A stretch of 13,686 nucleotides of DNA. Origin: Candidatus Heimdallarchaeota archaeon (GTDB lineage Archaea; Asgardarchaeota; Heimdallarchaeia; Heimdallarchaeales; Heimdallarchaeaceae). The DNA is taken from the NCBI GenBank assembly GCA_019057375.1, contig DXJF01000030.1, forward strand, positions 1-13,686, written 5' to 3'. Of this stretch, positions 1-13,686 are shown in pieces. A program made the position numbers and the translations under genes. Positions within the stretch are counted from its first letter, which is position 1; each line of letters opens with the position of its first letter. The notes below the pieces were generated by a model. That model was not told the origin of the DNA, searched no databases, and saw only the letters and a program-made list of their open reading frames with translations.

Positions 1-2
1 CT

Positions 3-1865
3 TATGGTGTGCAACGTACATCTCTTGCTCTCTATGCAAGTGAAATATCTGGTTCAAATATTATGAACATCTTGATTTTTCTTCAGATTTCCTCAACAAT
101 TATCACTTATGGTTTGTTTAAAGGTATTGCAGGTTTCTTTAGTTCTCGTATCAGTTCAAGAGTAAAGAGAAAAAATACTATGAGAATAGGGTTAGGACTT
201 CTATTTATAGGTTCTGTCTCAATTGTTCTAGCGAGATATATCAATCTGACAGGATTAATATTGGGTAACGTGTTTATAGGTGCTGGGTTGGGATTATTTT
301 TTACAGCTTCAATGTCAGCTCTAACCGAAATAGCAGGTGCAGAAGGGAGCGCTTTCTCTGTAGGTTCTATGGAATTTTCTGTGTATCTAGGATCCAGTAT
401 AGGTTCATTTTTTGCTGGGTTAATTGTGGAGAAACAAGGAAATAACTTTGCAGCAAGTTTTACATTTGCACTCATTGTTGCGGGTGTTGCTATTGTTATT
501 GGCATTTTATTACTCCGTAATGTTGAAACACAAGAATTGGTTAAAGGTACCAAGGAAGAAATCCTCTTAGATTCTACAAAAGTGGAAACTAAATGGAGTT
601 TAAGAAACATAATCAAAACTCCCACTTTATTGATATCATATTTAGTAGGTCATTTTTCCAGAATAATGGATAGTCTTATTGTTCTCCTCCTCCCTATTCT
701 TGTTTCAGCAAGTTATGGTTTTACTGCAACACAAGTGGGTTTAGTTACTGCTGGTTTCACTTTAGCTTGGGCTATTTCCATGCCCTTTACAGGAAAATTA
801 AGTGATCGTTTTGGAAGAAAAGAAGCCATTGTTGTTGGATTAATTGTCGAAGGTCTTGCATTAGTTCTGATAACATTTACAAAAGAACCTATTTACGTGA
901 TTTTATTAGCTATTGCAGCTGGTATAGGCACCGCAATCTACTACCCAAGCTTACCTTCTATAACCAGAGATGTTGTTCCTATAGTTAAGAGGGAACAAAG
1001 TTTTGGACTTTACAGAGCTTCCTTAGATTCAGGATATTTTACTGGACCACTCATTGCAATGGGTTTAGCATTTTCAGCAACTAAGCTAAATCTTTGGGGT
1101 GATACTTCAGACATAATTCTTGAAAATCAGCTCAAATTCCCATTTTTAGTTATTGGAATTTCATTGGGTGTTCTAGCTCTTTTATTTCTATTTCTTGCTA
1201 TGGAAACTAGACCTGGTTGGGTTCAAGCATCAATTAGCCTCAAACATGGTAATAAAGTAAAAGACGTTTATATGAAAATGAACCAAGCATTAGAAGCATA
1301 TATAGAAAATAAGGAAATTGACTGTTGTACAGACATACTCTTAGAAGCTAAAGAACTTGAAAGAGATGCTGATAGACTTGTTTTTAGAGTAACTCAAGCA
1401 CTATACGGTAAAGTTAGACCAGCACAAGACGATTATCATTTCTATAAAATCACTGACATTCTAGATACATCCATTGGTTTCACTTTGAGGTCTATGAGGA
1501 AGTTATTAATGATACCAAGACAAAATTTACCCAAAAGATTTATTGAATATTTGAAACTAGAATGTAACCTTCTTATCAAAATGATTACGAAAGCAGTCGA
1601 TGCTCTAGAAGTTGTATGTATTCAGCCTCTAGCTTCTCATCCTATATTTCAGGAAGTGCATGATTTAGAAAACAAGCTAGATTTAAACAGTCATCAAGGA
1701 TTATCTAGTATTACTAAAGATTCAGGAAAACTTAATCCTGTAGAAGCGCTCTATGTTATTCAAATAATCGAATCTCTAGAAATATCAGCTAATCAAATCG
1801 AAGATGCAGTAGATGTTATGAAGATTATTGGGTTGAAATATCAAGTAAGACCTCTTGTGGTTTAA
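3..1865 (+). CDS. MFS transporter fused to a C-terminal DUF47/PhoU-like (Pit accessory) domain; 5'-truncated by the window edge
   Basis: The frame is open to the left edge (tat ggt gtg from nt 3), so the GTG at nt 9 is probably not the true start. About 400 aa of hydrophobic helices carry two MFS motif-A loops (FSSRISSRVKRK; GKLSDRFGRK). The following ~215 aa soluble helical domain has the DUF47 pattern (KELERDADRL...DILDT...EVHDLENKLD...IIESLEISANQIEDAVDVM). Confidence 0.85.
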   Translation, partial: YGVQRTSLALYASEISGSNIMNILIFLQISSTIITYGLFKGIAGFFSSRISSRVKRKNTMRIGLGLLFIGSVSIVLARYINLTGLILGNVFIGAGLGLFFTASMSALTEIAGAEGSAFSVGSMEFSVYLGSSIGSFFAGLIVEKQGNNFAASFTFALIVAGVAIVIGILLLRNVETQELVKGTKEEILLDSTKVETKWSLRNIIKTPTLLISYLVGHFSRIMDSLIVLLLPILVSASYGFTATQVGLVTAGFTLAWAISMPFTGKLSDRFGRKEAIVVGLIVEGLALVLITFTKEPIYVILLAIAAGIGTAIYYPSLPSITRDVVPIVKREQSFGLYRASLDSGYFTGPLIAMGLAFSATKLNLWGDTSDIILENQLKFPFLVIGISLGVLALLFLFLAMETRPGWVQASISLKHGNKVKDVYMKMNQALEAYIENKEIDCCTDILLEAKELERDADRLVFRVTQALYGKVRPAQDDYHFYKITDILDTSIGFTLRSMRKLLMIPRQNLPKRFIEYLKLECNLLIKMITKAVDALEVVCIQPLASHPIFQEVHDLENKLDLNSHQGLSSITKDSGKLNPVEALYVIQIIESLEISANQIEDAVDVMKIIGLKYQVRPLVV

Positions 1866-1909
1866 GAGAAGGAGTTAAACTAAAAAGTGAGTATTGTACT
1901 TCACTCTTA

Positions 1910-3787
1910 ATGAAGAAATCGAATCTGATTTTGAAAACAGCTATTTTCGTCATTTTTGTTGCTTCATTTAACTCCATTAATGCAATTACATCTGTTGCTT
2001 ATAGTGTAGATTCAATCAACTTACCTGATTATAGTTTAGATACACGATTAACTTTGTATATCGAGTTTTTTGGTTTTGACTATGAACTACTTAATTTAGA
2101 TGAAATAGTAGGACTATTGGTAACAGAGTTCATTGGTGGAAATCAGGAGATTGGAACTTCAACTATTAGTTTCGATTTTAGTTTTTCATTTGCCACAGAG
2201 GCAGAATATACTCAACTTGAAAATTACATAAATTCTATAAAAGTAGATGGAACCGGAGTAGGATATTCCCTAAACAGAACTCAATTGCTCGATGATCTTG
2301 CTTCAGGGGAAAGAAACAATATCCTCATTCCAGAAAATGGGACTGTCATAGATGCAAGACTGGTAGAGAATTATCTCTATGAAAACTTCTATGAAGAAAA
2401 TACAGAAGATCCAGGTTACAAAATGTTTCTTTTGAATTTCACTCATTTGGATGCTCCAGAAATCGGTCAAGATCATTGGTATAAGATTGCAGAAACAGGA
2501 TTTGATTCTAATATCACTGTAGACTATTGGTTCTCAGGTTATAACGATATTCCTTATGTTCCTACTTTAGGGTTGGGGGGTTCAGAAAGATTCTGCTTTT
2601 TAGATTTATCAGCAAGAACTTGGTATTATGATTGGATATTTGATGCATGGGGATTTCCTACTGGAGATTACTCATATTATATTTATCCAGATTTGGATAC
2701 ACTCGCTCAAAATGTAAGCTTATATAGTACTTCAGGTCAAACAATACTTTCTACATACTTAGCCGACTACATCAACTCATATCTAGGGAACGTTTTTTCG
2801 GCTTATTATGGTGTAAGCCCTATAGGTGACTCATACTCAATGCAAGTTAAAGTATTCAATAATCTAACAGAAGCTGGTTATACATTGGATGAACTGAACT
2901 GGGTAATTTCTGAAGCTAGAATCTTTAATCAGCTAGAAATTGATTTTCCTTGGATTGATTGGATTATAGATGTTCAATTTGTTAATCTTCTAGATTATCC
3001 TAGTTTATCTTCATGGATATCCTCAAATCTTCAACAAGACCAAGATGGAGACTACATAGAGGTAATGAATGGCTTCTACCAATTACTTGAAACTCAATTA
3101 CCTATTCATTTTGATTACAGTGCAGCAGATAGTATTTTACCATGCTATTTCTTCTTAAATGATGATTTCCAATTCAGGTGGTATGGAACAGCTTTTGCGG
3201 GACTTGGAGGAATGGGATGGGAACTCTTAGTTAATGATCAATATGGTATGTTCGAAAATGGAAATCCTTCACTTCCTCGAAGAGGTATGTCTACTGTCAC
3301 AATCCATGAACTTGGACACAGTCTTGGAATTCCACATCCTCATAGTGGAGCTTATGGCTGGGGTTCTTCATTTATAGAAGATGCTATGAATTATTTTTCA
3401 AGAGGAGAAAGTAGCTTTAGTTCATTTTACAGAGATGGATTAGCAAGAGCTCATAATAATTACTGGTATAGTTTAGCTTCTGGTGAAATGGATGTAGCAT
3501 TTTTGAAATACACTGATGCTGGTTCCATTAATGAATTACTAGAGATGGTAAATGATATCTATATTCTATTAGGATCTGCAGCTAAGGATTACCAAGATAT
3601 GAATTATACTCTTTCAATCGAAAAGGTAAAATTGGCTAGATCTGAAATTGAAACCTTAGTTTTCTACATTGACAATCCTGACCAGATTCCCACAACTCCA
3701 ACAAATCGAACAGCGTCATATGCAAGCTTACTAGTTTTTACCTCAATTATCGTAAGTTCTGTACTAGTAAAGAGAAAAAGAAAATAA
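1910..3787 (+). CDS. Secreted, membrane-anchored metzincin-type zinc metalloprotease
   Basis: N-terminal signal peptide (MKKSNLILKTAIFVIFVASFNSINA). Extended zinc motif HELGHSLGIPH (HExxHxxGxxH, nt 3305-3337) followed by a Met-turn-like DAMNY. C-terminal Pro/Thr linker, hydrophobic helix and basic tail (PTTPTNRTASYASLLVFTSIIVSSVLVKRKRK). Confidence 0.8.
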   Translation: MKKSNLILKTAIFVIFVASFNSINAITSVAYSVDSINLPDYSLDTRLTLYIEFFGFDYELLNLDEIVGLLVTEFIGGNQEIGTSTISFDFSFSFATEAEYTQLENYINSIKVDGTGVGYSLNRTQLLDDLASGERNNILIPENGTVIDARLVENYLYENFYEENTEDPGYKMFLLNFTHLDAPEIGQDHWYKIAETGFDSNITVDYWFSGYNDIPYVPTLGLGGSERFCFLDLSARTWYYDWIFDAWGFPTGDYSYYIYPDLDTLAQNVSLYSTSGQTILSTYLADYINSYLGNVFSAYYGVSPIGDSYSMQVKVFNNLTEAGYTLDELNWVISEARIFNQLEIDFPWIDWIIDVQFVNLLDYPSLSSWISSNLQQDQDGDYIEVMNGFYQLLETQLPIHFDYSAADSILPCYFFLNDDFQFRWYGTAFAGLGGMGWELLVNDQYGMFENGNPSLPRRGMSTVTIHELGHSLGIPHPHSGAYGWGSSFIEDAMNYFSRGESSFSSFYRDGLARAHNNYWYSLASGEMDVAFLKYTDAGSINELLEMVNDIYILLGSAAKDYQDMNYTLSIEKVKLARSEIETLVFYIDNPDQIPTTPTNRTASYASLLVFTSIIVSSVLVKRKRK

Positions 3788-3799
3788 TCTTCTTTTTTT
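3788..3799 (+). terminator. Oligo-T archaeal terminator-like tract
   Basis: TCTTCTTTTTTT lies immediately after the stop codon of the metalloprotease, in a convergent intergenic region. Confidence 0.55.
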
Positions 3800-3858
3800 A
3801 CTCATCTAATGTGAAGAGAGATGCATTAAAAATTGATAGATATAGGTTCTGTATGCAT

Positions 3859-5919
3859 TTAAAAATCTACTTTAATAGCATTACTAAGGACTAAATGCGG
3901 GCCAAATAATTCTTGAACTTCTGTATCAATTGCATTACTAACTTCCTCAGAAAGTTCTCCAAAGAATTGTCTAGGGATATCAATTTGAGAGAGTTTATCG
4001 GTTAATTGATGTATTTTTCGACGTAAAGAAAAAGAATCTAAAGCACTAACTGCTACAGAACTGAATCCTTTGGGATGAGCTTCGATAATGATTTTATGGT
4101 TTCCATATGTTATACAGAGCATCTGACTTTTTTGTTCCTCGAATAGTTCTGTCAGCATATCTCTTACTGCAACAATGAACCCCCCAAATAGAAGCTGATC
4201 TTTTACAGCTCTCTTCAGGATGACATATGAACGAAGTGGAATACCTGATCTATGAAGAATGATTAGTGCTAAGGGTGATGCATCAAAATCAACATAAGAC
4301 TTTTGCATATGTCTTAATCCCACCTCTTCCAAAGTTGCAATATCCTTTCTAAATGGTTCATTAACCCAATCTATTTCCTTTACTGCTTCTATTGGAAAGA
4401 GCAAATTAATTTGTTCTATTTTACCTTCAACTAATTGTTGTAGTTGGGGGAGATTATTTTCTGACGCAAGTTCTTTTGCTTTTTGGAGGCGATTAAAAGA
4501 ACGAGTATAATTTTCTTGCAGTGCTAGAATTTTACCTTGTAACAAATAGAGTGCTACTTGTTCTTTTACTAGTTTATTCTCAGAGAAATATGGAATTAAA
4601 TCGTTGAGGTTATTTAAAGTTAAACCTAGTATTTTTTTGTCCTTTTCTAGATCATAGTTTTCCAAATTCATCAGAACAAGATTCATCAGAATCTTAGCAG
4701 ATAACTCTCCACTCCCGTGTCTATCAGCGATATCTAATGCCTTAGAAAATTCTTCTACAGCTTTACCATAGTTTAGTTTCTTTACACTGTACATACCTTT
4801 TAGGAAAAAAATATAAGACTCAATTACTGGAGAGGGATTTGTTCTAATTTCTTCCTCAATAGAATTCAAGAATATTTCAAAGTCTGTTAATCGATTACTC
4901 TGCAAATATAATTCAGCTAAAGTACAATAGTGATAAGTTTCTTTCATATTGAGCTTTTCAATAATTTTCAAGGCTTCTTCATATTTTTCAATAGCATCTT
5001 CAAATAGACCTCTTTCTATAGCTATGTCTCCTAAGCACTTTATTGTGAGTGCTAAATATCTATTTGCTTCTAAATCCTTAAAAATATCTAAAAGATCTGT
5101 GAATTCCTTTTCTGCTGAATCTAAATTACCTGTTACAACATTCAAAGTAGCAATATTTCCTCTTACAGCTGCAAGGAACAGTTGATTACCAGTCGATTCA
5201 AAAAGAGATTTAGCTTTTTCTGTCATTATAAGAGATTCTTCTATTTTTCCGCTATCACGATTTAATAATGCGAGAAGATAACAGAATTTTCCTATATGAT
5301 TTCTTTCTCCTAAATCTGTAGCAATATGAAGAGCTAAGTTAATTTTGTTTTCTAATTTTATTTTTTCTTCGACATATCTATTAAGAAGAAAATTATCTGC
5401 ATGACCATCCAAGAGTATATCATTGAGAACCTGTTTCTGTTCAGTAGGAAGTTTTTGAGAGGTAAAAGCTTCTTCAAACAAAGTGTTAAGGTTTATTCTA
5501 CATTGTTCGTAGTTTCCAAGATTTAGATAACCAAAAGCAATAGATCTTATAGCATGTAATCTGAAAAGTGGGGAAATATCTTCAATATCCTTGATCTCAG
5601 AGGCTAATCTAATTGCCACTTCGTTCATCCCTTTTTCAAGTAATAATCGAATCTGCCATAATTTGATACTATAGTGGTTGTTTAAACTAAAATTCTCAAG
5701 TGATGCATAATCAGAAATTGAGAAAAGGATTTTTCCAATGCTGAAAAGCAAATTAGCTGATGGTGTTTTTTGTTTTTCGACAAAATCTAGAAGAAATTTG
5801 CTTAATTTGACTAAAGAATCCCCAACTCTAAAATCTTCTTGATATCTTTTTAATTCTTCTTGCTCAGTCACATCTAAAATAGGCAAGTAAATTGAAAATT
5901 CCCTAGGGAACCCAACCAT
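3859..5919 (-). CDS. TPR-repeat protein with C-terminal longin domain (paralogue B)
   Basis: TPR units have about 40-aa spacing (HIGKFCYLLALLNRDSGKIEESL.../FLAAVRGNIATLNVVTGNLDSAE.../YLALTIKCLGDIAIERGLFEDAIEKYEEALKI). The C-terminal ~138 aa (nt 4275-3862) show a longin pattern (ALIILHRSGIPLRSY...DQLLFGGFIVAVRDMLTELF...ITYGNHKIIIE...FSSVAVS...LRRKIHQL). The start is placed at ATG 5919 rather than TTG 5946 because it aligns with the paralogue's N-terminus (FPREFSIYLPIL vs LPPEIMSVYSLL) and has AGGGGG upstream. Confidence 0.8.
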   Translation of the reverse strand: MVGFPREFSIYLPILDVTEQEELKRYQEDFRVGDSLVKLSKFLLDFVEKQKTPSANLLFSIGKILFSISDYASLENFSLNNHYSIKLWQIRLLLEKGMNEVAIRLASEIKDIEDISPLFRLHAIRSIAFGYLNLGNYEQCRINLNTLFEEAFTSQKLPTEQKQVLNDILLDGHADNFLLNRYVEEKIKLENKINLALHIATDLGERNHIGKFCYLLALLNRDSGKIEESLIMTEKAKSLFESTGNQLFLAAVRGNIATLNVVTGNLDSAEKEFTDLLDIFKDLEANRYLALTIKCLGDIAIERGLFEDAIEKYEEALKIIEKLNMKETYHYCTLAELYLQSNRLTDFEIFLNSIEEEIRTNPSPVIESYIFFLKGMYSVKKLNYGKAVEEFSKALDIADRHGSGELSAKILMNLVLMNLENYDLEKDKKILGLTLNNLNDLIPYFSENKLVKEQVALYLLQGKILALQENYTRSFNRLQKAKELASENNLPQLQQLVEGKIEQINLLFPIEAVKEIDWVNEPFRKDIATLEEVGLRHMQKSYVDFDASPLALIILHRSGIPLRSYVILKRAVKDQLLFGGFIVAVRDMLTELFEEQKSQMLCITYGNHKIIIEAHPKGFSSVAVSALDSFSLRRKIHQLTDKLSQIDIPRQFFGELSEEVSNAIDTEVQELFGPHLVLSNAIKVDF

Positions 5920-5964
5920 AATCCCCCTTTCATTCATTGGTTTCAAGATAAATAGGGATATGTT

Positions 5965-5995
5965 AAATAAAAATATTCTCCTCGTAAGAGAACAT
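5965..5995 (-). terminator. Hairpin plus U-tract between the two TPR-longin genes
   Basis: The minus strand reads ATGTTCTC-TTACGAG-GAGAATAT-TTTTATTT: an 8-bp stem with one G:U pair, a 7-nt loop and a T-rich tail, starting about 10 nt after the stop at 6005. Confidence 0.5.
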
Positions 5996-6004
5996 CAACT
6001 AATT

Positions 6005-8050
6005 TCAAGGCCTTTGACCTTTAATACCAAAAAGATTTCGTACAACTGAGTCTAGTTCGTAAGATTCAGTTTCACTTATATCTCCTTTGTATTTATCACT
6101 AGAAAGACCTTTGAAAGAGAGATTTTCAACCAAACGATGCATCTTTCTTCTTATCATGAAACTATCTCGCAAGGCAATTACTACTACCGAAAATACATTC
6201 GAATAGAACTCAATAAGGAGTTTATATTGTCCGTGATCAATTGACATAACTTGTTGTTTTTGTTCTACAAACAATTCATTCATCAGATGTCTTATCGCAC
6301 TTACGAACCCTCCAAAAAGAAGATCATCACTAACGCTCACATCTTCAGAGAAGTAAGATCGTATAGGTATGCCACTGGAATGAAAAATTAATACAGCAAT
6401 GGGTTTTTCTTCTTTTGGTGCAGCTAGTTTCTTGGATTCTTTCCTTAGTATCTTTGCTATGATTTGAATATCATCAAGAAAATCGATAACTCCCTCATCT
6501 ATTATTTTTTCTAATTCACTTTCTATAGCGATTTTCACTTGGTCTATTCTTTGTTTATAATCATCTATCAGCTGTGGAGTATATGTTCGAGCAAATTCCT
6601 CTCCTGTTTTAAGTAAGAATAGAGCTGTTTCAAAATCTAAAAGAACAATTTTTATTTTTGCTCTAATATGATAAATTAGTGAGAGAGATTCATATTTGGC
6701 TTTCTCTTCCAGATACGTAATTATATCTTCTAAACATTTGTCTGCTTCAATTAACTCTTCAAGATTTGTTGTAATTGTATACTTCTTAAGGAAAACTATT
6801 GATAATAATACTAGTGTTTTAGAGCTCAGAATTTCATTTCCTAATTCGTCAGCCAGAAGCATTGCCTGTTGGAGGAAATCTTGAGAATTACCATAATTGT
6901 TTTTCTTATATTCAAGAAAACCTAGCAAAAACCAATAATTTGATTTTTGAGTAGGAGTTAATTCTCCTTTTTTAGTCTTTTCTAGTTGAAGAAGAATAGA
7001 TTCAGTTTCTTTGACTTCATCTAAGTATAATAAAATCTCAACATATTTCATCTCCATAGCTAAATCCTGGAAACCTTTATTTTGGATGATATCTAGTACT
7101 TTTTCCATTTCCTTTTTAGCTTTAGCAAATTCTTCCTGTGAGAAATACACTTCCGCATAATTTGAATGTAGCATAAATAAAGATCTAAAATCACTAGTCC
7201 AATTATTGGTTATCTTCTGACTTTTATTATAATAAAAAATCGCTTCATCAAGATGCCCCATTTGTCTATACACATTCCCGATACTTTCAGTAATATGTCC
7301 CAACAATCGATCTATCTTGATTTCCTTAGCAATTGCTTCTCCTTTAAGAAAAATTTGATGAGCAATCTGAAAATTCCCTCTTTCAAGCTCTATATTACCA
7401 ATTGAATTATAGGTTTGTGCTGAGCTTATTCGGTCATTAAGGGCTCTATTGATGTTCAAAGATTCCTTAGTTTTATCTCTAGCTAGCGAAAGTATGTAAG
7501 TTGACTGAAGGTAAATTGCATCCAATTCAAGCATATAAATTTGAATGAGTTTGAATATCTCTCGAGATTCTTGCATATTTTCTACGTCTGCAAAACTATA
7601 GAAATTGTAGCAATTTTCTCTGTTCTCTTCATAAATCTGATAATCCTGAACTAAATAAGCTTCTATAGCTTGAATGTAATAGATAAATGCATGAAATATT
7701 GATTTTTCCAATTCCTGCTTAACTGTTTCAAGAACTTTGTTAAATTCCTCAAAATTACCTTCATACATTAAACAAACTGAATACCAAAGCCCTAATTCTG
7801 CAATAGGGTTATTAGAATATAGTTCCTTTATTTTTTCATACTTTCCTCTATGAAATAATATCCTACCAACGAGAAATGAGAAAGCTTTTGAAATTTCTAA
7901 AAATTTGCTGAATTGCGAAACTAATATTTCCTCTATTTCATCCAATTTGGATGTTTGAGAGAGATTTTCGTTGTTAAGTAAATAATTTTTCTCTTCCTCC
8001 GATAACAAAGAGTATACAGACATTATTTCTGGAGGAAGATTTTCAATCAT
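6005..8050 (-). CDS. TPR-repeat protein with C-terminal longin domain (paralogue A)
   Basis: TPR units of about 40 aa (SAQTYNSIGNIELERGNFQIAHQIFLKGEAIAKEIKIDRL/LGHITESIGNVYRQMGHLDEAIFYYNKSQKI). C-terminal longin-like domain at nt 6403-6008 (AVLIFHSSGIPIRSY...DDLLFGGFVSAIRHLMNELF...SIDHGQYKLLIE...FSVVVIA...IRRKMHRL). Clearly homologous to the adjacent gene. Confidence 0.85.
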   Translation of the reverse strand: MIENLPPEIMSVYSLLSEEEKNYLLNNENLSQTSKLDEIEEILVSQFSKFLEISKAFSFLVGRILFHRGKYEKIKELYSNNPIAELGLWYSVCLMYEGNFEEFNKVLETVKQELEKSIFHAFIYYIQAIEAYLVQDYQIYEENRENCYNFYSFADVENMQESREIFKLIQIYMLELDAIYLQSTYILSLARDKTKESLNINRALNDRISSAQTYNSIGNIELERGNFQIAHQIFLKGEAIAKEIKIDRLLGHITESIGNVYRQMGHLDEAIFYYNKSQKITNNWTSDFRSLFMLHSNYAEVYFSQEEFAKAKKEMEKVLDIIQNKGFQDLAMEMKYVEILLYLDEVKETESILLQLEKTKKGELTPTQKSNYWFLLGFLEYKKNNYGNSQDFLQQAMLLADELGNEILSSKTLVLLSIVFLKKYTITTNLEELIEADKCLEDIITYLEEKAKYESLSLIYHIRAKIKIVLLDFETALFLLKTGEEFARTYTPQLIDDYKQRIDQVKIAIESELEKIIDEGVIDFLDDIQIIAKILRKESKKLAAPKEEKPIAVLIFHSSGIPIRSYFSEDVSVSDDLLFGGFVSAIRHLMNELFVEQKQQVMSIDHGQYKLLIEFYSNVFSVVVIALRDSFMIRRKMHRLVENLSFKGLSSDKYKGDISETESYELDSVVRNLFGIKGQRP

Positions 8051-8072
8051 TGGTTTAACGACTAATTTAGCT

Positions 8073-8080
8073 ATTAAAAA
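8073..8080 (-). promoter_or_regulatory. TATA box candidate for TPR-longin A
   Basis: Minus-strand TTTTTAAT lies 23-30 nt upstream of ATG 8050, which fits a leaderless archaeal transcript. Confidence 0.5.
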
Positions 8081-8152
8081 GTTTGATGAAAGTGCGGCTC
8101 AGTTTAAAAGAAAAATTAATAGTTCAGTTAATGTTTTAAGAATTAACACATA

Positions 8153-8174
8153 TTTAAAATTGTACGATTGGAGA
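8153..8174 (+). promoter_or_regulatory. TATA box candidate and SD-like motif for the methyltransferase
   Basis: TTTAAAA at 8153-8159 is 20-26 nt upstream of ATG 8179, and GGAGA lies at 8170-8174. Confidence 0.45.
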
Positions 8175-8178
8175 TTTC

Positions 8179-10197
8179 ATGCATACTGAAGAGTCAAAAA
8201 ATATCTTGGAAACATATGTAAACCATTTACAAAGTGTAGGTTTAAATCATCAGGAGAGCTATTCTCTAGTTTTAAAGGTCTGGGTAATGGTCAATAATGA
8301 ATTTATCAAGATTATAGAAGATAACAAGACTATTTCATTAGCGAATATTTATTCATCGAACAACTTTCACTTATCAGATTTTGTACCTCTCTTTGAATAT
8401 TACAAAGTTTCTAAGGTTTTACTTGAGAAAGAATTAGTTGAAAAATTGTGTGATTTCTTAGCAAACATAGATATTGGATTCTTACTCTCGACTATTAAGG
8501 ATTTAAAATCTAGAAAAGTAATAGGACAGTATTTTACAAATCCAGAGATGATAGATCAAGTTTATCGAAACATTACAATCAACTCAGGATTAAAGGGAAA
8601 ATTTTCAGTAATGGATTTCTCTGCAGGATTGGGCTATTTCTTAAAGCCATTTCTAAAAGATAATTGCAGTATTTATGGTGTTGAATTGGATCCATTAATT
8701 TACGAATTAATGTTGTTTAGTTTTCTTTTCCATACCACACTAACAAACAATGTCAAAACAAGATTAGTACTTACTGTCAAGCAAGGAGATTCTCTGATTG
8801 GTTTCAAAGAGAAAATTATCGAAGAAATTTTTTCAAAATCTGTTCTGAAAGAGAATTTTCTTGAACTTATCTCTCTTCGAAACAAGATTCTTGCAACAAA
8901 TAGAAAAATTGATCTTAATGATTTGAAGGAATATTTTGATAGAAGAAGCTTTTTTGCTGAAAGAGCTAAACACTTCAGAAGTTTCAATTGGGTGGTAGAT
9001 TTTCCTGAATTATTTTTTGATCAAAAAGGCAATTTGCTTGAAGAAATTGGTGTAGACTATGTTGTCGGTAATCCACCATGGGTATATTACAAGGATGTAG
9101 ATGAAAAACAGTATAAGAAAGATATTCTTGATCCTCGGATTTCAAATTTTCTAAGAGGTAAATACAACTTTTCCCTTCCATTCGTGATTTTAGCTCATAT
9201 TATTTCGAAAGAAAAAGGCAGTTTAGTAGTTCCTCAAGGGATTTTAACTGAAACATATGCTAAAGAGTGGAGAAAGGAGGTTTTCACTAAAGGGTCTATA
9301 TCTGAAATAATTCTCTGCAAGAAAGATTGGTTTGAGGAGGTTATCAACGAATTCAGCATTATTTTCTGGAACAAAAAAAGCAAGTTCTCTGAAATTAAGC
9401 TAAGAAATGAAATCACTACTTCAGAATTTATAATACCTTATGATTCAATTGATCAGGACTTGAACCTATTAAAATTACTTCCACCAGATATTTTATCATT
9501 CCTTAAAAAGATAGAAGCAAAATCACCGACTCTTTCAGACTTTGTTTCAATTAGGCGAGGTTTAACTCTAAGCAAGATGTATCAAAACTATTATAATAAT
9601 AAGAAAATGGAAACTGAGACGTCAAACCAGATAAAAAAACTACTCAGGAGTAATTCTTTCTTAAACAATAAGGAGAATGGGGTGTTTAATTTTCAACTCT
9701 TTCACTCAGGGAAAACTTTTGTCTATGACAAGAACTTATTAGGAGCACCTGGATCAGAACAACTCTTTGAACAACCAAAAATAATTCGTCGAAATAGAGG
9801 AAAATTATGGTATATAGGAATGGATTTGAATGGAGATTATTATGTCAATGACATTTTCGATATCATGTATTCTAAAAAGAAGCAAATTTCAATTAAAATC
9901 ATTTATGGCTATCTTTGTTCATCCTTTATTCAACTGCTTGCAGAGAGTCTTCTAGTTAGAGATATAACGTCGAATAGTGTAAGACATTTTCCATTTCCCA
10001 AGTTTAATTTTGAACATTTTAGCAAAATAGAGGTGAGTGTTGATAAATGGTTACTTTCTCAAAGTACGGAAAATGATTTTTCGAAAATGCGAAAGGAAGT
10101 GGATGAGATTGTTTTTGATTATTGGAGATTTCCAGACGAAATTAGAATGTACATTGAAAATAATACTTTTCTCCGCTGGAGAGAGAAGGGAAGTTAA
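8179..10197 (+). CDS. Gamma-class N6-adenine DNA methyltransferase (Eco57I/TaqI-like) with C-terminal target-recognition domain; no nuclease domain
   Basis: Motif X RKVIGQYFT, motif I VMDFSAGLGYFL (nt ~8611-8643), IYGVELDP, VKQGDSL, FNWVVDFPELFF...VDYVVGNPPW (NPPW at nt 9070-9081). The C-terminus resembles TaqI_C (PKIIRR...DLNGDYYVND...YGYLCSSFI...FPFP). The motif order X-I-IV-TRD defines the gamma class. Confidence 0.88.
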   Translation: MHTEESKNILETYVNHLQSVGLNHQESYSLVLKVWVMVNNEFIKIIEDNKTISLANIYSSNNFHLSDFVPLFEYYKVSKVLLEKELVEKLCDFLANIDIGFLLSTIKDLKSRKVIGQYFTNPEMIDQVYRNITINSGLKGKFSVMDFSAGLGYFLKPFLKDNCSIYGVELDPLIYELMLFSFLFHTTLTNNVKTRLVLTVKQGDSLIGFKEKIIEEIFSKSVLKENFLELISLRNKILATNRKIDLNDLKEYFDRRSFFAERAKHFRSFNWVVDFPELFFDQKGNLLEEIGVDYVVGNPPWVYYKDVDEKQYKKDILDPRISNFLRGKYNFSLPFVILAHIISKEKGSLVVPQGILTETYAKEWRKEVFTKGSISEIILCKKDWFEEVINEFSIIFWNKKSKFSEIKLRNEITTSEFIIPYDSIDQDLNLLKLLPPDILSFLKKIEAKSPTLSDFVSIRRGLTLSKMYQNYYNNKKMETETSNQIKKLLRSNSFLNNKENGVFNFQLFHSGKTFVYDKNLLGAPGSEQLFEQPKIIRRNRGKLWYIGMDLNGDYYVNDIFDIMYSKKKQISIKIIYGYLCSSFIQLLAESLLVRDITSNSVRHFPFPKFNFEHFSKIEVSVDKWLLSQSTENDFSKMRKEVDEIVFDYWRFPDEIRMYIENNTFLRWREKGS

Positions 10198-10201
10198 TGT
10201 A

Positions 10202-10209
10202 TTTTTATA
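10202..10209 (+). promoter_or_regulatory. TATA box candidate for the uDENN-like gene
   Basis: TTTTTATA lies 25-32 nt upstream of ATG 10234, with no SD motif, consistent with its own leaderless promoter. Confidence 0.55.
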
Positions 10210-10233
10210 CTATTTTGCCTATTAATATAGTAG

Positions 10234-10755
10234 ATGAGCTTCGCCTACTCTGAATTGAATACAATTCTCTTACATGAACAAGAGGAAAAATTCGATAATG
10301 ACCTGATCGATTTAAGTCTTGTTTGTTCAATATTTGATGAAGAGATAGGGCCCACCATAATATACAACGATTCCTTACTTGACAAAGAGGTTTTAGAAAA
10401 TCTCAACATCAAAGTTTTTAGTTTTCTTATGCAAGAAAGCGATTTCGGATCCAATAATTTTGCTAAGATGAGAGGAATAGTTCAGATACCTCACTCAGAT
10501 TATTATACTTCAGCTATAGATATTCTTGTTAGAAAAGAAGGTGTAAATCGCTTCTATGATACTTATGTTCCACTTGTAGTATTCTTGATTTTTCCTAAGA
10601 AGCATTTTGGAACCTATGCAAAGATAGCTATTAGTCTAGAAGAGTTCATTTGCAAGAAATTCGGTGAAGGTTTAAGTCAAATTCCTGCTCTAAAGACATT
10701 AGAAGACTTCATCAAGCAGTTATACACAAAAACCAAAGAATCTAGGCTAGTTTAA
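10234..10755 (+). CDS. Stand-alone uDENN/NPRL2-like longin-fold protein
   Basis: The N-terminal hairpin LVCSIFDEEIGPTIIY matches the (F)D-x(3)-GP-x-I signature of uDENN/NPR2/AVL9-type longins. It is followed by a helix (EVLENLNIKVFSFLM), three strands (RGIVQIP, YYTSAIDILV, PLVVFLIFP) and C-terminal helices. Confidence 0.65.
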   Translation: MSFAYSELNTILLHEQEEKFDNDLIDLSLVCSIFDEEIGPTIIYNDSLLDKEVLENLNIKVFSFLMQESDFGSNNFAKMRGIVQIPHSDYYTSAIDILVRKEGVNRFYDTYVPLVVFLIFPKKHFGTYAKIAISLEEFICKKFGEGLSQIPALKTLEDFIKQLYTKTKESRLV

Positions 10756-10905
10756 ATACTAACTAAGAATGAGCTTAGAAACATTTTTGTCGGAAAATTC
10801 AAGGTTTTTAAGAAAAGTGCCAAGTCAACATGTATGTTTTTAATATTAACTGAATTACATTTACAAAAGATAATTTGTGAATTGAATGTTAAGATCTCTT
10901 TTTAA

Positions 10906-11106
10906 TTATAGTTTGCGAAATTGCTCCTTCTCCTTTAATTTTATGTTTTCAGAGAAGTTTCCTTCATAATACTCCTTAGAAAGGAACTCTTTTAGTGAAT
11001 CCCTGACAAGCTCAGACCTCGAGTCGTAATTCCCCATTGACATCATGTCATTCATCCATTTAATCATGCTATCAGTTACTTTGAAAGTAATTAATCTCTT
11101 CTTCAT
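10906..11106 (-). CDS. Ribbon-helix-helix (CopG/Arc/MetJ-type) transcriptional regulator
   Basis: The 66-aa protein has a beta strand with alternating hydrophobic residues (RLITFKV), helix A (DSMIKWMNDMM), a G-x-Y turn and helix B SRSELVRDSLKEFL, the typical RHH signature. Confidence 0.85.
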   Translation of the reverse strand: MKKRLITFKVTDSMIKWMNDMMSMGNYDSRSELVRDSLKEFLSKEYYEGNFSENIKLKEKEQFRKL

Positions 11107-11138
11107 CTGTTGACCAAGCTATATGCTTCACACTATGC

Positions 11139-11156
11139 ATATAACTTTTTTGTCGG
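11139..11156 (-). promoter_or_regulatory. BRE + TATA promoter of the RHH gene
   Basis: The minus strand reads CCGACAAAAAAG-TTATAT, with the TATA box 33-38 nt upstream of ATG 11106. Confidence 0.6.
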
Positions 11157-11273
11157 AAGCAACGTTTTGTAATACCCGAATGTTACAGTTTGAAAAAAAC
11201 GATATAATTAATCTTCAGATTCATTGAGTAAATAGGCTATATTTTTGATGAACTAGATAAAAAGTGTATAAAT

Positions 11274-12392
11274 TTACTCAGTATCTATTTCAAATTCTGC
11301 GATTTCTTCAAGCTCATTAGCTTCTTTTTTCCAAGCAGAGTATTTCTTCATTATTCCTTCAATGTCGCCTGATATTGACCGTGCAAGTTCTGCTCCTGAA
11401 GCTTTCTCAGCATCTATTTCCTCTACTTTCTTTATTTCTAAGATTGGTGCGCCTTTTAGCTCTTCTCTTGCATCCTTCTCTTCTTCTATTCTATCAAGCC
11501 AGTTTCTATATTTGTCAATTTCCTCTACTTCTGTTCTATGATCCTTTATCATCTGAAAAATCTCTGACCTTAGAGGTTTTGAGACATCCCAAGTCATTTG
11601 CCAGATTAAATCACTCTGATATTGCGAGAACTTTCTATCCATTTTGTTTTCAATGAAAGAAATGAATTTCCAGAATTTTTCTCCCAAAATATCTGATATT
11701 TTTTTCTCCGCTGTTTCTTCATTAGATTCAATACTTAAAGCAGTTTGAATCCCTTCTAATTGTTCATAGACATATTTTCTAATATATGGCCACAAAGTTG
11801 GGAATTCTAGTAATTCTTCTTTTTCTTTTATTTGCTCAACTTCTGGTATTATTTCTGTGTGTTTTTCCTTCTTTTCTTTCACAGATTTCACCAGTTCATC
11901 TATGTCTTTGTACCCATTGTTCCTTGCTATCATCTTCAGAGCTGAATCTATAGAATACAGCAGAGATGCTGGATGTTCCAATTTCGATTCACTCATTAAT
12001 TCTTCTACTGCTAATTCTGAACCTATAGCCCCTAATGACAAAGCAGCTCTACTTTTTACAATTACTTTTGGATCTTTTCTAAGTGAAATTAAAAGAGCAG
12101 ATATCGCTTGAGGAGAAGAAAACTTTCCTAAAGATCTTGAAGCTGCTAATCTGATTTTTTCTTCAGTATCCATGAGGCAATAGATTAGTGTTTCAATAGC
12201 TCTATGGTCAGCAATTTCAGATAAAGCAATAATCGCATAGGTTCTATTCTCAATTGTATCCTGGTTTACTACTTTTATCAAAGGTTCAACAGCTCTCTCG
12301 TCCCTTAGTTCTCCTAGTGCCAAAATAGCTTCTTCTCGTTTTTCAGGTACCTCGTGATTAAGCTGTTTAATTAGCTTATTTAGGCTAACCAT
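11274..12392 (-). CDS. HEAT (PBS-lyase type) repeat protein with uncharacterised charged helical C-terminal region
   Basis: The first ~150 aa hold about five HEAT_PBS-like units (KREEAILALGELRDERAVEPLI; NRTYAIIALSEIADHRAIETLI; IRLAASRSLGKFSSPQAISALL; VKSRAALSLGAIGSELAVEEL). The remaining ~220 aa are Glu/Lys-rich and helical. Confidence 0.85.
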   Translation of the reverse strand: MVSLNKLIKQLNHEVPEKREEAILALGELRDERAVEPLIKVVNQDTIENRTYAIIALSEIADHRAIETLIYCLMDTEEKIRLAASRSLGKFSSPQAISALLISLRKDPKVIVKSRAALSLGAIGSELAVEELMSESKLEHPASLLYSIDSALKMIARNNGYKDIDELVKSVKEKKEKHTEIIPEVEQIKEKEELLEFPTLWPYIRKYVYEQLEGIQTALSIESNEETAEKKISDILGEKFWKFISFIENKMDRKFSQYQSDLIWQMTWDVSKPLRSEIFQMIKDHRTEVEEIDKYRNWLDRIEEEKDAREELKGAPILEIKKVEEIDAEKASGAELARSISGDIEGIMKKYSAWKKEANELEEIAEFEIDTE

Positions 12393-12415
12393 GTTAATTA
12401 TAAGTGAAACTAAAA

Positions 12416-12430
12416 ATATAAAGGTTTTTT
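12416..12430 (-). promoter_or_regulatory. BRE + TATA promoter of the HEAT gene
   Basis: The minus strand reads AAAAAACC-TTTATAT, with the TATA box 24-30 nt upstream of ATG 12392, a textbook leaderless archaeal promoter geometry. Confidence 0.7.
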
Positions 12431-12458
12431 GGGTGATTTGACTAGTTAATCTCGAAAC

Positions 12459-13415
12459 TCAAAGCTTTTTCCTAAAAACATAATCTTCTTTTGCAATCAG
12501 GGTTACAGCTGAATCTTCCTTCTCATCAATTATTTTTAGATCAGAATCTTTTATGATTTCTTCTGAAAACGCTCTTATCTTCTCATACCTTGGCATAATT
12601 TCGTAAGATAATCTCTTTCTAGCATCTCCAACGGACATAAATCCTTTGGGTTCCAGAAAGTGTGCTTCAGATTTTTCAAACCATTCTCTGAACTTTTCTG
12701 GTTCAATCATATTATAGCCAGGTACTAAAGTTAATCTCATAACCTTTCGCGTCTTCAAAGATGGGAGAAGATCTATTGTCTGTAGAATCTTGTCCCACGC
12801 TTCCTTATCTGAAGGTCTTCCTGTTTTTTCAAATGATTCTTTTGTAGGTGCAATCATAGTTAAATATAGTTGAGATGGTAAAGTATCAAGTTGCTCTAGA
12901 ATCTCAGGATTGGTTCCATTTGTCACTAGAAAAGTAGTCATTTTCCTAGAATGAAATTCTTCTATCAGCTCTCCTAGACGAGGATAAAAGGTAGGTTCTC
13001 CACTTAATGAGATAGCAGCATGTTTAGGATTAAATGCTTCATCATATTTCTCCATTGGAACTTTAGCATGATTTTTGTAACCAGCTATCAGTTTACGTTG
13101 ATGATAAATCATAGAATCAACAATTGCTACTGGATCATCTACTTGACAGTTCATTGTACCTTTATTGTACCATGAAGCACTTCTCCAACAGAAAACGCAT
13201 TTCAGATTACACCAGATAGTTGCGGGAGTACACTGTAGACATTGATGAGAATTGATTCCATAGAATTGACTTTTGTAGCAAACTCCTTCTCCCTTTAGTG
13301 AGTGTTTCAACCATGTACAGGTTTTAACAGCTGAATGATTACCTGCGATTCTATACTGTTGTTTCTCGAGCTTCTCTTTAACTTTACTTGGAATGGTACA
13401 TGGTTCTATAGACAT
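12459..13415 (-). CDS. taw1: 4-demethylwyosine synthase Taw1/TYW1 (radical SAM tRNA-Phe modification enzyme)
   Basis: GNHSAVKTC...CYK..FYGI.SHQC (auxiliary cluster Cys residues and catalytic Lys), radical SAM motif CNLKCVFCWR, SLSGEPT, TTFLVTNGT, QLYL and EPKGFMSVG. There is no flavodoxin domain, as expected for the archaeal form. ATG 13415 with GGTG 5 nt upstream is preferred over TTG 13430. Confidence 0.95.
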   Translation of the reverse strand: MSIEPCTIPSKVKEKLEKQQYRIAGNHSAVKTCTWLKHSLKGEGVCYKSQFYGINSHQCLQCTPATIWCNLKCVFCWRSASWYNKGTMNCQVDDPVAIVDSMIYHQRKLIAGYKNHAKVPMEKYDEAFNPKHAAISLSGEPTFYPRLGELIEEFHSRKMTTFLVTNGTNPEILEQLDTLPSQLYLTMIAPTKESFEKTGRPSDKEAWDKILQTIDLLPSLKTRKVMRLTLVPGYNMIEPEKFREWFEKSEAHFLEPKGFMSVGDARKRLSYEIMPRYEKIRAFSEEIIKDSDLKIIDEKEDSAVTLIAKEDYVFRKKL

Positions 13416-13517
13416 TAAAACACCAAACAATGAGTTCTATTTCAATTTATCTAATTGTAAGGTACGAAGAAGTAAATTATCACTTTGGTTTTGGCTTAAA
13501 AGTAATGCGAGAGAATT

Positions 13518-13640
13518 TTGAAAGAGAAGGAAGTTGTTAGCGTATCTCCGTGCAGTCATACTTTTCTTAGAAGTGAATCACTTGATTTGTTGGATTCTGA
13601 TGATATTTGTACAATCTGTAATGAGAAAATCACAATGTAG
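13518..13640 (+). CDS. Putative 40-aa RING-like zinc-binding micro-protein (or RING pseudogene fragment)
   Basis: Manual translation from TTG 13518 gives MKEKEVVSVSPCSHTFLRSESLDLLDSDDICTICNEKITM* (TAG 13638-13640), containing P-C-x-H-x-F and C-x2-C. It is below the length cut-off of the ORF track, and the start codon is uncertain. Confidence 0.4.
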   Translation: MKEKEVVSVSPCSHTFLRSESLDLLDSDDICTICNEKITM

Positions 13641-13686
13641 ATATTAGTATTAATGATTAAAAATTAAAAAGTAAATATATATGAAA

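Follow-up and report, generated by a model that had tools for sequence, protein, structure and literature searches.

Longin domains are the fold with which eukaryotes dock and switch small GTPases. Asgard archaea, to our knowledge, encode small GTPases by the dozen alongside numerous Roadblock/longin proteins, and almost none of these regulators has been matched to its GTPase. Fusions of a GTPase to a longin domain have been described in these archaea, and two reports (Liu et al., bioRxiv 10.1101/2020.10.19.343400; Tran et al., 2024, PMC10933270) take GTPase-longin and GTPase-Roadblock fusions to indicate that the joined parts interact functionally. Here we analyze a 13,686-nt stretch of DNA from a Candidatus Heimdallarchaeota archaeon (assembly GCA_019057375.1, contig DXJF01000030.1, positions 1–13,686; hereafter the window), which carries two adjacent genes, A and B, whose products are each predicted to join a tetratricopeptide repeat (TPR) solenoid to a C-terminal longin-like domain. 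We tentatively read the two proteins as a TPR-longin adaptor pair for small-GTPase signaling, a reading to which we give slightly less than an even chance.

The closest described systems each share part of this architecture. The Asgard Roadblock/longin proteins, among them Arf- and Rag-like fusions and the solved structures 8yqg, 9m28 and 8yl2, come from the same phylum and the same domain superfamily as A and B, but in the GTPase-longin fusions the domain's partner is a GTPase, whereas in A and B it is a solenoid of ~500 residues. The eukaryotic longin heterodimers (the synbindin/sedlin-type Bet5-Trs23 of TRAPP, Mon1-Ccz1, Fuzzy-Inturned and HPS1-HPS4) resemble A and B in consisting of two diverged paralogues kept together, and modeling lends the pairing of A with B weak support. 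Mon1, Ccz1, Fuzzy, Inturned, HPS1 and HPS4 have three longins per chain, whereas A has one (residues 557–684) and is otherwise helical repeat; in A and B solenoid and longin lie in the same chain, and neither protein is a member of these eukaryotic families at the sequence level. Roadblock/LC7 proteins (LC7/km23, MglB, LAMTOR) share the strand-strand-helix-three-strand core with A, and dynein LC7b/Roadblock has a G-[IV]-P-[IL]-R/K-S turn nearly the same as that of A and B, but Roadblock matches stop before the two C-terminal helices of A, which fit longins instead. Long right-handed TPR superhelices like that of A are found in LGN/Pins, TSK/BRU1, the arms of OGT/SPY and the TPR subunits of APC/C; this likeness is generic to the repeat, and those proteins have no C-terminal longin domain. 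Asgard Roadblock/longin proteins as such were known; what is new here is the joining of TPR and longin within a single chain, in a gene pair that has been retained since an old duplication.

The source assembly comprises 3.47 Mb at 89% completeness, with the window labeled C125 among its contigs, and near-identical proteins in databases carry the names Candidatus Heimdallarchaeota or Heimdallarchaeaceae. Both genes are read from the minus strand, one following the other head to tail. Gene B, the upstream member (6005..8050), starts with ATG and encodes 681 aa; gene A, the downstream member (3859..5937, stop codon at 3859–3861), encodes 692 aa. The open reading frame (ORF) of A can also be read from a TTG (3859..5946, 695 aa), but the ATG at 5937 is the more likely start because its closest relatives are also 692 aa long. 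Between the two genes lie 58–67 nt, depending on the start of A; read directly, the spacer from the B stop to the A ATG (5938..6004, minus strand) is 67 nt long and holds an A/T-rich stretch, TTTTTATTTAA, ~25–35 nt ahead of that ATG. A and B are clearly paralogues by sequence, with a likeness far above chance (BLASTP E 2e-43, 30% identity over 369 aa, and 43% identity within the C-terminal domain). Relatives of A with 692–693 aa, which databases call ‘tetratricopeptide repeat protein’ (Heimdallarchaeota), share 70–95% identity with it over the C-terminal region, and B orthologues show 64–71% identity in five relatives. A preliminary description, made from the letters of the window, had proposed two adjacent, co-oriented paralogues of ~680 aa, each a ~540-aa run of 40-residue TPRs followed by a longin domain; the ORFs fill the interval it gave, and it was right about their shared orientation while leaving the minus strand unstated.

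Structure prediction supports a longin fold for the last ~130 residues. The C-terminal longin-like domain of A occupies 3886..4269 (minus strand, residues 557–684; AlphaFold, VIA-align and Foldseek), and that of B 6008..6424 (minus strand, ~residues 543–681), where the domain profile matches at E 1.4e-59. AlphaFold single-chain models cover protein A, and the TPR and longin parts of B were assigned by sequence. A model of A residues 500–695 (26-row alignment, pLDDT 80.3) and one of full-length A (macb27e5e52e0; 28-row alignment, pLDDT 85.5, pTM 0.79) show the same topology, strand-strand-helix-strand-strand-strand-helix-helix, in agreement with the longin topology proposed earlier. By DSSP, the sheet part of the domain model consists of E61–66, E71–77, H85–104, E110–115, E118–125 and E129–135 (five strands), elements that recur at residues 557–631 of the full-length model, where the whole domain spans 557–684. 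Two helices follow the last strand (H140–153 and H168–182, block pLDDT 90–96), with block pLDDT 89–96 from the fourth strand through the second of these helices. A further helix upstream of strand 1 (H30–47 in the domain model, H530–543 in the full-length model) is of low confidence, at block pLDDT 52–70.

We compared the A domain model with 48,161 PDB representatives using VIA-align and considered the best 50 rows. Ranks 1–12 were all longins (Z 11.8 to 10.1, rmsd 2.6–4.9, 115–129 residues aligned), led by VAMP7 (Z 11.8, rmsd 2.9 Å, 116 aligned) and synbindin (Z 11.8, 3.1 Å, 120 aligned), with AP-3 sigma (Z 11.5, 2.6 Å, 119 aligned), Sec22 (Z 11.5, 3.1 Å, 117 aligned), sedlin (Z 11.3, 3.3 Å, 128 aligned) and the CPLANE chain 7q3d_C (Z 11.1, 3.6 Å, 119 aligned) among them. 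These six chains cover model residues 58–186, both C-terminal helices included. The first Roadblock-type chain appeared at rank 13 (Z 10.0, 102 aligned); Roadblock chains (MglC Z 10.0, MglB 9.0, MP1/p14 8.5) cover residues 55 to ~159–172 and leave their own N-terminal helix unaligned. Lower rows held the Lokiarchaeal longin 8yqg_B (Z 9.2), LokiRagM 9m28_A (Z 8.8), Mon1-Ccz1 (Z 7.8) and BLOC-3 (Z 7.7). Foldseek placed the VAMP7 longin first (E 5e-5), followed by Bet5 and sedlin. The families that the preliminary description expected as structural matches thus turned up, with sedlin, AP sigma, CPLANE and Mon1-Ccz1 all in the list.

A sensor of small molecules or signals with another alpha/beta fold (PAS, GAF or profilin-like), which would make A and B TPR signal transducers, fits these comparisons poorly, and we regard it as very unlikely. 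The only Pfam rows for the domain, both far below their cut-offs, are HK-GC-Chemotax_sensor (E 0.059), which such a sensor would explain, and Ribosomal_L32e (E 0.17), and one profilin-family chain, 8ti6_A, reaches Z 8.2; but judged by entry titles no PAS or GAF chain stands among the best 50 VIA-align rows, longins are ahead by more than one Z unit, and the Foldseek matches listed at E ≤1.5e-3 are all longin or Roadblock family chains.

Sequence comparisons tell a different story. The motif read earlier from the letters, of the type H-x-SGIP(L/I)RSY...LLFGGF, is present in both proteins: A reads HRSGIPLRSY followed by LLFGGFIVAVRDMLTELF, and B reads HSSGIPIRSY followed by a helix, LLFGGFVSAIRHLMNELF, with SGIP as the turn. 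Across alignments of 18–28 rows the glycine of this turn is invariant and the proline nearly so, and an arginine after strand 5 (R93 of P0001) is nearly invariant. Searched against PDB sequences, an 18-domain profile aligned through its core (positions 8–85) with dynein Roadblock LC7b (E 0.0025), whose G-V-P-L-R-S turn is almost identical to the domain's SGIP turn; other dynein Roadblock chains followed at E 0.02–0.26 and Bet5 at E 0.7. A single-sequence PDB search with the domain gave only CutA, at a noise-level E of 0.26, and a HMMER all-library search with a single domain found 20 representatives at E ≤0.001, including P0056, a repetitive non-relative. In the Atlas, an Asgard cluster with Fuz_longin_1 on 22% of its members (score 0.87) offers a lead only. 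Because the predicted structure favors longins while the sequence profile reaches Roadblock LC7b, we assign the domain to the joint Roadblock/longin superfamily and describe its topology as that of a longin. Of the folds that the preliminary description had named as contrary to its proposal, PAS and GAF were not seen among the structural matches considered, and Roadblock is represented by the core match to LC7b, with no Pfam Robl_LC7 match.

Ahead of this domain lies a long helical repeat. In A, AlphaFold and Pfam place the TPR solenoid at 4405..5904 (minus strand, residues 12–511), with 26 helices arranged mostly as pairs ~40 residues apart, which makes the ~540 aa of the preliminary description roughly right. 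Both proteins match the Pfam families TPR_12, TPR_2 and TPR_MalT, all within residues ~190–500; A scores 48.4 bits for TPR_12 (cut-off 30.1) and 51.5 for TPR_MalT (cut-off 45), and B 62.4 bits for TPR_12 (E 4.8e-17), its three families lying within residues 190–423. The corresponding region of B (6425..8050, minus strand, ~residues 1–542; Pfam and PADLOC) aligns lengthwise with the A solenoid, and the generic TPR model of PADLOC matches its residues 121–341. Foldseek searches with full-length A returned TSK/BRU1, LGN/Pins, Ctr9, SPY, APC/C subunits and OGT at E ~1e-6 (for the TPR scaffolds, E 6e-7 to 4e-6 over 350–490 aligned columns at 12–16% identity and rmsd 7–18 Å), identifying the modeled N-terminal part as a generic TPR superhelix and nothing more specific. 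By this model the region would be a 13-repeat superhelix, probably holding an extended peptide or a client protein. Neither Pfam nor PADLOC detected an NTPase, protease or nuclease domain in A or B, and the full-length A model contains none. The same holds for effectors of the STAND/CHAT NTPase or protease type in Pfam, NCBIfam and PADLOC searches of both chains; the A model leaves no space for one.

Solenoid and longin of A are connected by linker helices (4309..4371, minus strand, residues 523–543 in the full-length model), whose packing is unsure, at block pLDDT 52–70 in the domain model. This junction bears on a different arrangement, in which the longin domain folds back on its own TPR groove as an autoinhibitory lid and A and B act as independent, separately regulated receptors. 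The Ykt6 and VAMP7 longin domains fold back in this way on their own SNARE motifs. The pTM of 0.79 for full-length A places the longin definitely relative to the solenoid, and A may have a promoter of its own in the A/T-rich box of the spacer, both of which would suit a lid; the low confidence of the linker speaks against it, and it would leave the adjacency of A and B across four genera unexplained. We consider it improbable.

That adjacency is old. In 14 of the 19 genomes of the genus with both an A-type and a B-type match, B lies ~2.1 kb upstream of A on the same contig and strand, and the pair is adjacent in 4/4 sampled genomes from three other genera of the family; orthologues thus do occur as pairs, as foreseen. 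Among the five remaining genomes, three (G018, G024 and G023) show a gene truncated where its contig stops, one (G002) was left unexamined, and the last, G012, is taken up below. We built a quick maximum-likelihood tree from 30 hand-listed full-length TPR-longin proteins, with SH-aLRT as the only support measure. The A clade and the B clade comprise 10 rows each, from four genera of one family (SH-aLRT 100 each), and are sisters (SH-aLRT 99); B is always the upstream gene and A the downstream one. Since each of the sister clades spans the four sampled genera, the sequences indicate a duplication that predates them, with the gene order kept ever since.

Whether the two longins bind each other was approached by complex prediction. 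The A:B longin-domain complex received ‘weak support’, scoring 0.32 against 0.00 for the best of three controls, with at least 73% agreement of contacts between runs and partner pLDDT of at least 67. Among 157 solved complexes, 116 attain the mark for this score, as do 2 of 215 mismatched pairs; scores at the mark but no higher than 0.60 belong to only 18 of the 157 solved complexes, plus both mismatches that passed. The pass may reflect a likeness to solved longin dimers in the PDB. The heterodimer put forward at the outset therefore keeps weak in silico support. A second feature separates the two proteins: the loop of 10–11 residues between strand 2 and helix 1 carries a net charge of 0 to +3 in 10/10 A proteins and of −3 to −5 in 10/10 B proteins, and in the window it is basic in A (net +2) and acidic in B (net −4). 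This contrast fits a complementary contact or different partners and proves neither.

The domain is widespread both in this genome and in the phylum. Its profile marks 19 places in the genome, six of them TPR proteins (the A/B pair plus four at dispersed loci, 588–678 aa long) and three of them Arf-like GTPases that have the domain at the C-terminus; at others it forms stand-alone proteins of ~150 aa or belongs to several membrane-anchored proteins. The membrane-anchored proteins, on contigs C64, C11 and C63, have the domain on the cytoplasmic side, and those on C64 (42320..45931 and 46051..47412, minus strand) are a protein of 1204 aa, whose extracellular part is large, and the 454-aa protein next to it. 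To keep GTPase fusions out of the query, a profile was built from 17 TPR-protein domains, with no GTPase-fused row. A search with it through the genome's complete set of 5234 open frames hit the C-terminal parts of the three Arf-like GTPases (contigs C37, E 3.5e-10; C108, E 2.7e-7; C135, E 1.4e-6). Arf-profile matches lie at all three places, and the Arf domain of the C37 protein is confirmed. By these profiles, homology is detectable between the A/B domain and the domain that ends the three fusions.

Among public proteins, the 105 longer carriers of the domain are either TPR proteins (590–725 aa) or proteins with Arf PF00025 (312–335 aa), with the product names ‘tetratricopeptide repeat protein’ or ‘ADP-ribosylation factor-like protein’; all organism names given are Heimdallarchaeal, bar one ‘Asgard group archaeon’. 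Across a sample of the phylum, the domain matches at E ≤1e-8 in 100/121 genomes and 43/46 genera, and most of the matches listed sit in open frames of 600–780 aa. We annotated 11 such frames from 10 genomes, a picked rather than random set: ten encode TPR proteins, from five further families, and one a FrhB/ferredoxin-like protein. Tandem TPR-longin genes also recur at other loci. The survey that the preliminary description called for thus finds the TPR-longin architecture across Asgard archaea, as an expanded, phylum-wide family and not a one-off. In the FrhB/ferredoxin-like case (locus L039, 922..2463, plus strand, contig G130:C55, another Asgard family), the domain appears to end a 514-aa protein with Fer4, FrhB_FdhB_N and FrhB_FdhB_C up to residue 343; the longin-domain match runs beyond the frame end, with one TAG within.

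These results frame the adaptor reading. A and B would belong to a cytoplasmic adaptor that serves the small-GTPase network of Asgard archaea, either as its two subunits or as co-regulated versions of it. Both chains join a TPR superhelix, probably holding a peptide or client, to a C-terminal longin domain; the longin domains would pair, most likely A with B, into a two-longin platform; one of the genome's Arf- or Rag-like GTPases would dock on that platform; and the complex would then act as an exchange factor, a GTPase activator or an effector scaffold. We infer the binding of A to B, the GTPase on the platform, the TPR cargo and the direction of regulation alike. Domain fusion is what makes a connection to small GTPases plausible, since members of this domain family are joined to Arf-like GTPases within the genome; to that extent the regulator idea of the preliminary description stands, its ‘TPR-gated’ element being conjecture. 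A stricter version, in which A and B form an obligate heteromer whose paired longins are the exchange factor or activator for an Arf- or Rag-like GTPase while the TPR arms select the client or membrane site, has in our estimate a small chance of being right. Were this stricter version true, A and B would represent a phylum-wide adaptor family and a prokaryotic complex that unites longin platform and alpha-solenoid in one chain, where eukaryotes use separate subunits (TRAPP, adaptor complexes).

Several observations weigh against it. Pfam at E ≤10 finds no longin or Roadblock family in the C-terminal domain (Robl_LC7 included), with none of Longin, Sybindin, Sedlin_N, Clat_adaptor_s and Fuz_longin_1 for P0001 or P0002, and NCBIfam at E ≤0.01 finds nothing there. 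LC7b is the domain's sole significant sequence link to a solved protein, and dynein LC7 is a dimeric helix-binding adaptor and no GTPase regulator. A shared fold by itself shows no function. A GP motif just before strand 2 marks longin GTPase activators, according to one study (PMC12290439); the turn of A and B reads G-I-P instead of the strict motif. No small-GTPase gene lies on this contig, the genome's 36 Arf-profile matches all being on other contigs, and TPR-longin genes show no clear excess near GTPase genes in this genome, judged by eye and with no formal test. The complex score is weak, and A:A or B:B homodimers are equally possible. Whole A and B genes lie on different contigs in G012 (loci L029 and L030), each with other ORFs alongside. 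Finally, a third TPR-longin gene (670–674 aa), missing here, stands directly downstream of A in eight relatives.

The two last points concern the pair itself. The flanks in G012, a 402-aa ORF after B and a 314-aa ORF before A, are unrelated to the usual neighbors, and an insertion or rearrangement may have split the pair there. Because the third gene adjoins A in eight relatives (G001, G005, G008, G021, G012 and G016, with G009 and G013 assigned by coordinates), the size of the array is not fixed at two; what the preliminary description called a pair is in those relatives a triple array. The carriers include two whose A is 95% identical in the C-terminal domain. In the window only 71 nt (3788..3858) separate A from the protease-like gene, as compared with loci L025–L029 and L045, and no orthologue of the third gene was found elsewhere in this assembly (89% complete), so that its absence reflects either a recent loss or an assembly gap. 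In the tree the third gene forms a clade of its own that joins a dispersed paralogue on long branches, which identifies it as no recent copy of A or B.

The evidence from LC7 invites an account in which the longin/Roadblock-like domain is an oligomerization or helix-binding module, as in dynein, that joins TPR scaffolds into homo- or heterodimers with no GTPase involved. It would accommodate the core match to LC7b as the best sequence link, a window that has no GTPase gene, and a promiscuous domain that also ends membrane proteins and an FrhB-like protein; a helix-binding role has been proposed for an Asgard RBLC7 dimer by Tran et al. (PMC10933270). It sits less easily with the fusion of the same domain to three Arf-like GTPases here, a fusion common in the public protein set, and with the better fit of longins (Z 11–12 over residues 58–186) than of Roadblocks (Z 8–10 over residues 55–159). 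We judge it unlikely, though a serious contender. If the domain is a plain dimerization module, that would temper the habit of reading each Asgard longin as a trafficking part.

In the literature searched we found no description of the TPR-longin family or of the A/B pair, in line with the preliminary description, which knew of none for the pair; the asCOG supplementary tables may list the family. The nearest statement comes from an ESCRT survey (PMC10936438), which mentions TPR repeats as additional domains in a subset of Vps28-C/adaptin/longin proteins. A family that is common in the phylum is labeled only ‘tetratricopeptide repeat protein’ in databases, and it ties a client-binding solenoid to a domain fused to Arf-like GTPases in the same cells. 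With its age, constant order and differing loop charge, the A/B pair lends itself to testing whether heterodimers of longins arose before eukaryotes did, and both longin domains are small and soluble, which makes biochemistry and structures feasible.

The surroundings of the pair are conserved: an MFS-PhoU transporter, a zinc-protease-like gene, the TPR genes, a divergent methyltransferase, a protein of 173–186 aa, a HEAT protein and Tyw1. The MFS transporter, with a C-terminal PhoU_div (DUF47) domain, occupies 3..1865 (plus strand), its frame running off the contig start. It is followed at 1910..3787 (plus strand) by the zinc-protease-like protein of 625 aa, with a signal-like N-terminus and a C-terminal membrane anchor. 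This protein has a metzincin-like motif, HELGHSLGIPHPH, and only a faint Pfam match to Peptidase_M10 (E 0.022), and shows 44–55% identity in five relatives. Divergent from B, at 8179..10197 (plus strand), lies a 672-aa DNA methyltransferase of Eco57I/N6 type with a TaqI-like specificity domain, in which no nuclease domain was detected. It is kept in place in five relatives at only 37–41% identity, against 62–79% for its neighbors.

With this methyltransferase next door, the TPR proteins could be imagined as the sensors of an anti-virus defense island, an idea to which we attach hardly any credence. The constant place of the methyltransferase gene in five relatives would agree with it, and PADLOC does give TPR and MTase_II/DrmMI matches, but these are generic repeat, methylase and HEAT models only; no domain of the nuclease, NTPase or protease kind was found in A or B, and the MFS transporter, Tyw1 and HEAT protein form a stable housekeeping context at 62–79% identity, unlike a mobile island.

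Beyond the methyltransferase, at 10234..10755 (plus strand), lies a gene for P0003, a protein of 173 aa that matches neither Pfam nor NCBIfam. It is a conserved neighbor in 3/5 relatives examined (42–45% identity), and a GP dipeptide (EEIGPTIIYN), invariant in relatives, stands at the spot matching the activator GP motif. Its profile from five relatives found no match among PDB sequences, and a profile-profile comparison with the A/B domain gave a probability of 0.5%. The nearest Atlas clusters of P0003 are unnamed Asgard ones, one with NPR2 on 19% of its members (score 0.92), and further clusters are folliculin/LST7 and C9orf72-like (0.77–0.78). By sequence, P0003 may be a ‘GP-motif’ longin of the activator (NPRL2/folliculin) type. 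A P0003-like protein (BLASTP E 0.001) adjoins two Arf-like GTPase genes on contig C37, in a three-gene row at locus L005 (511..3210, minus strand): an Arf-like GTPase with a different C-terminal extension, a 331-aa Arf-like GTPase ending in an A/B-type longin, and the P0003-like protein, a GP-motif protein of 256 aa. These three genes could form a GTPase-regulator module.

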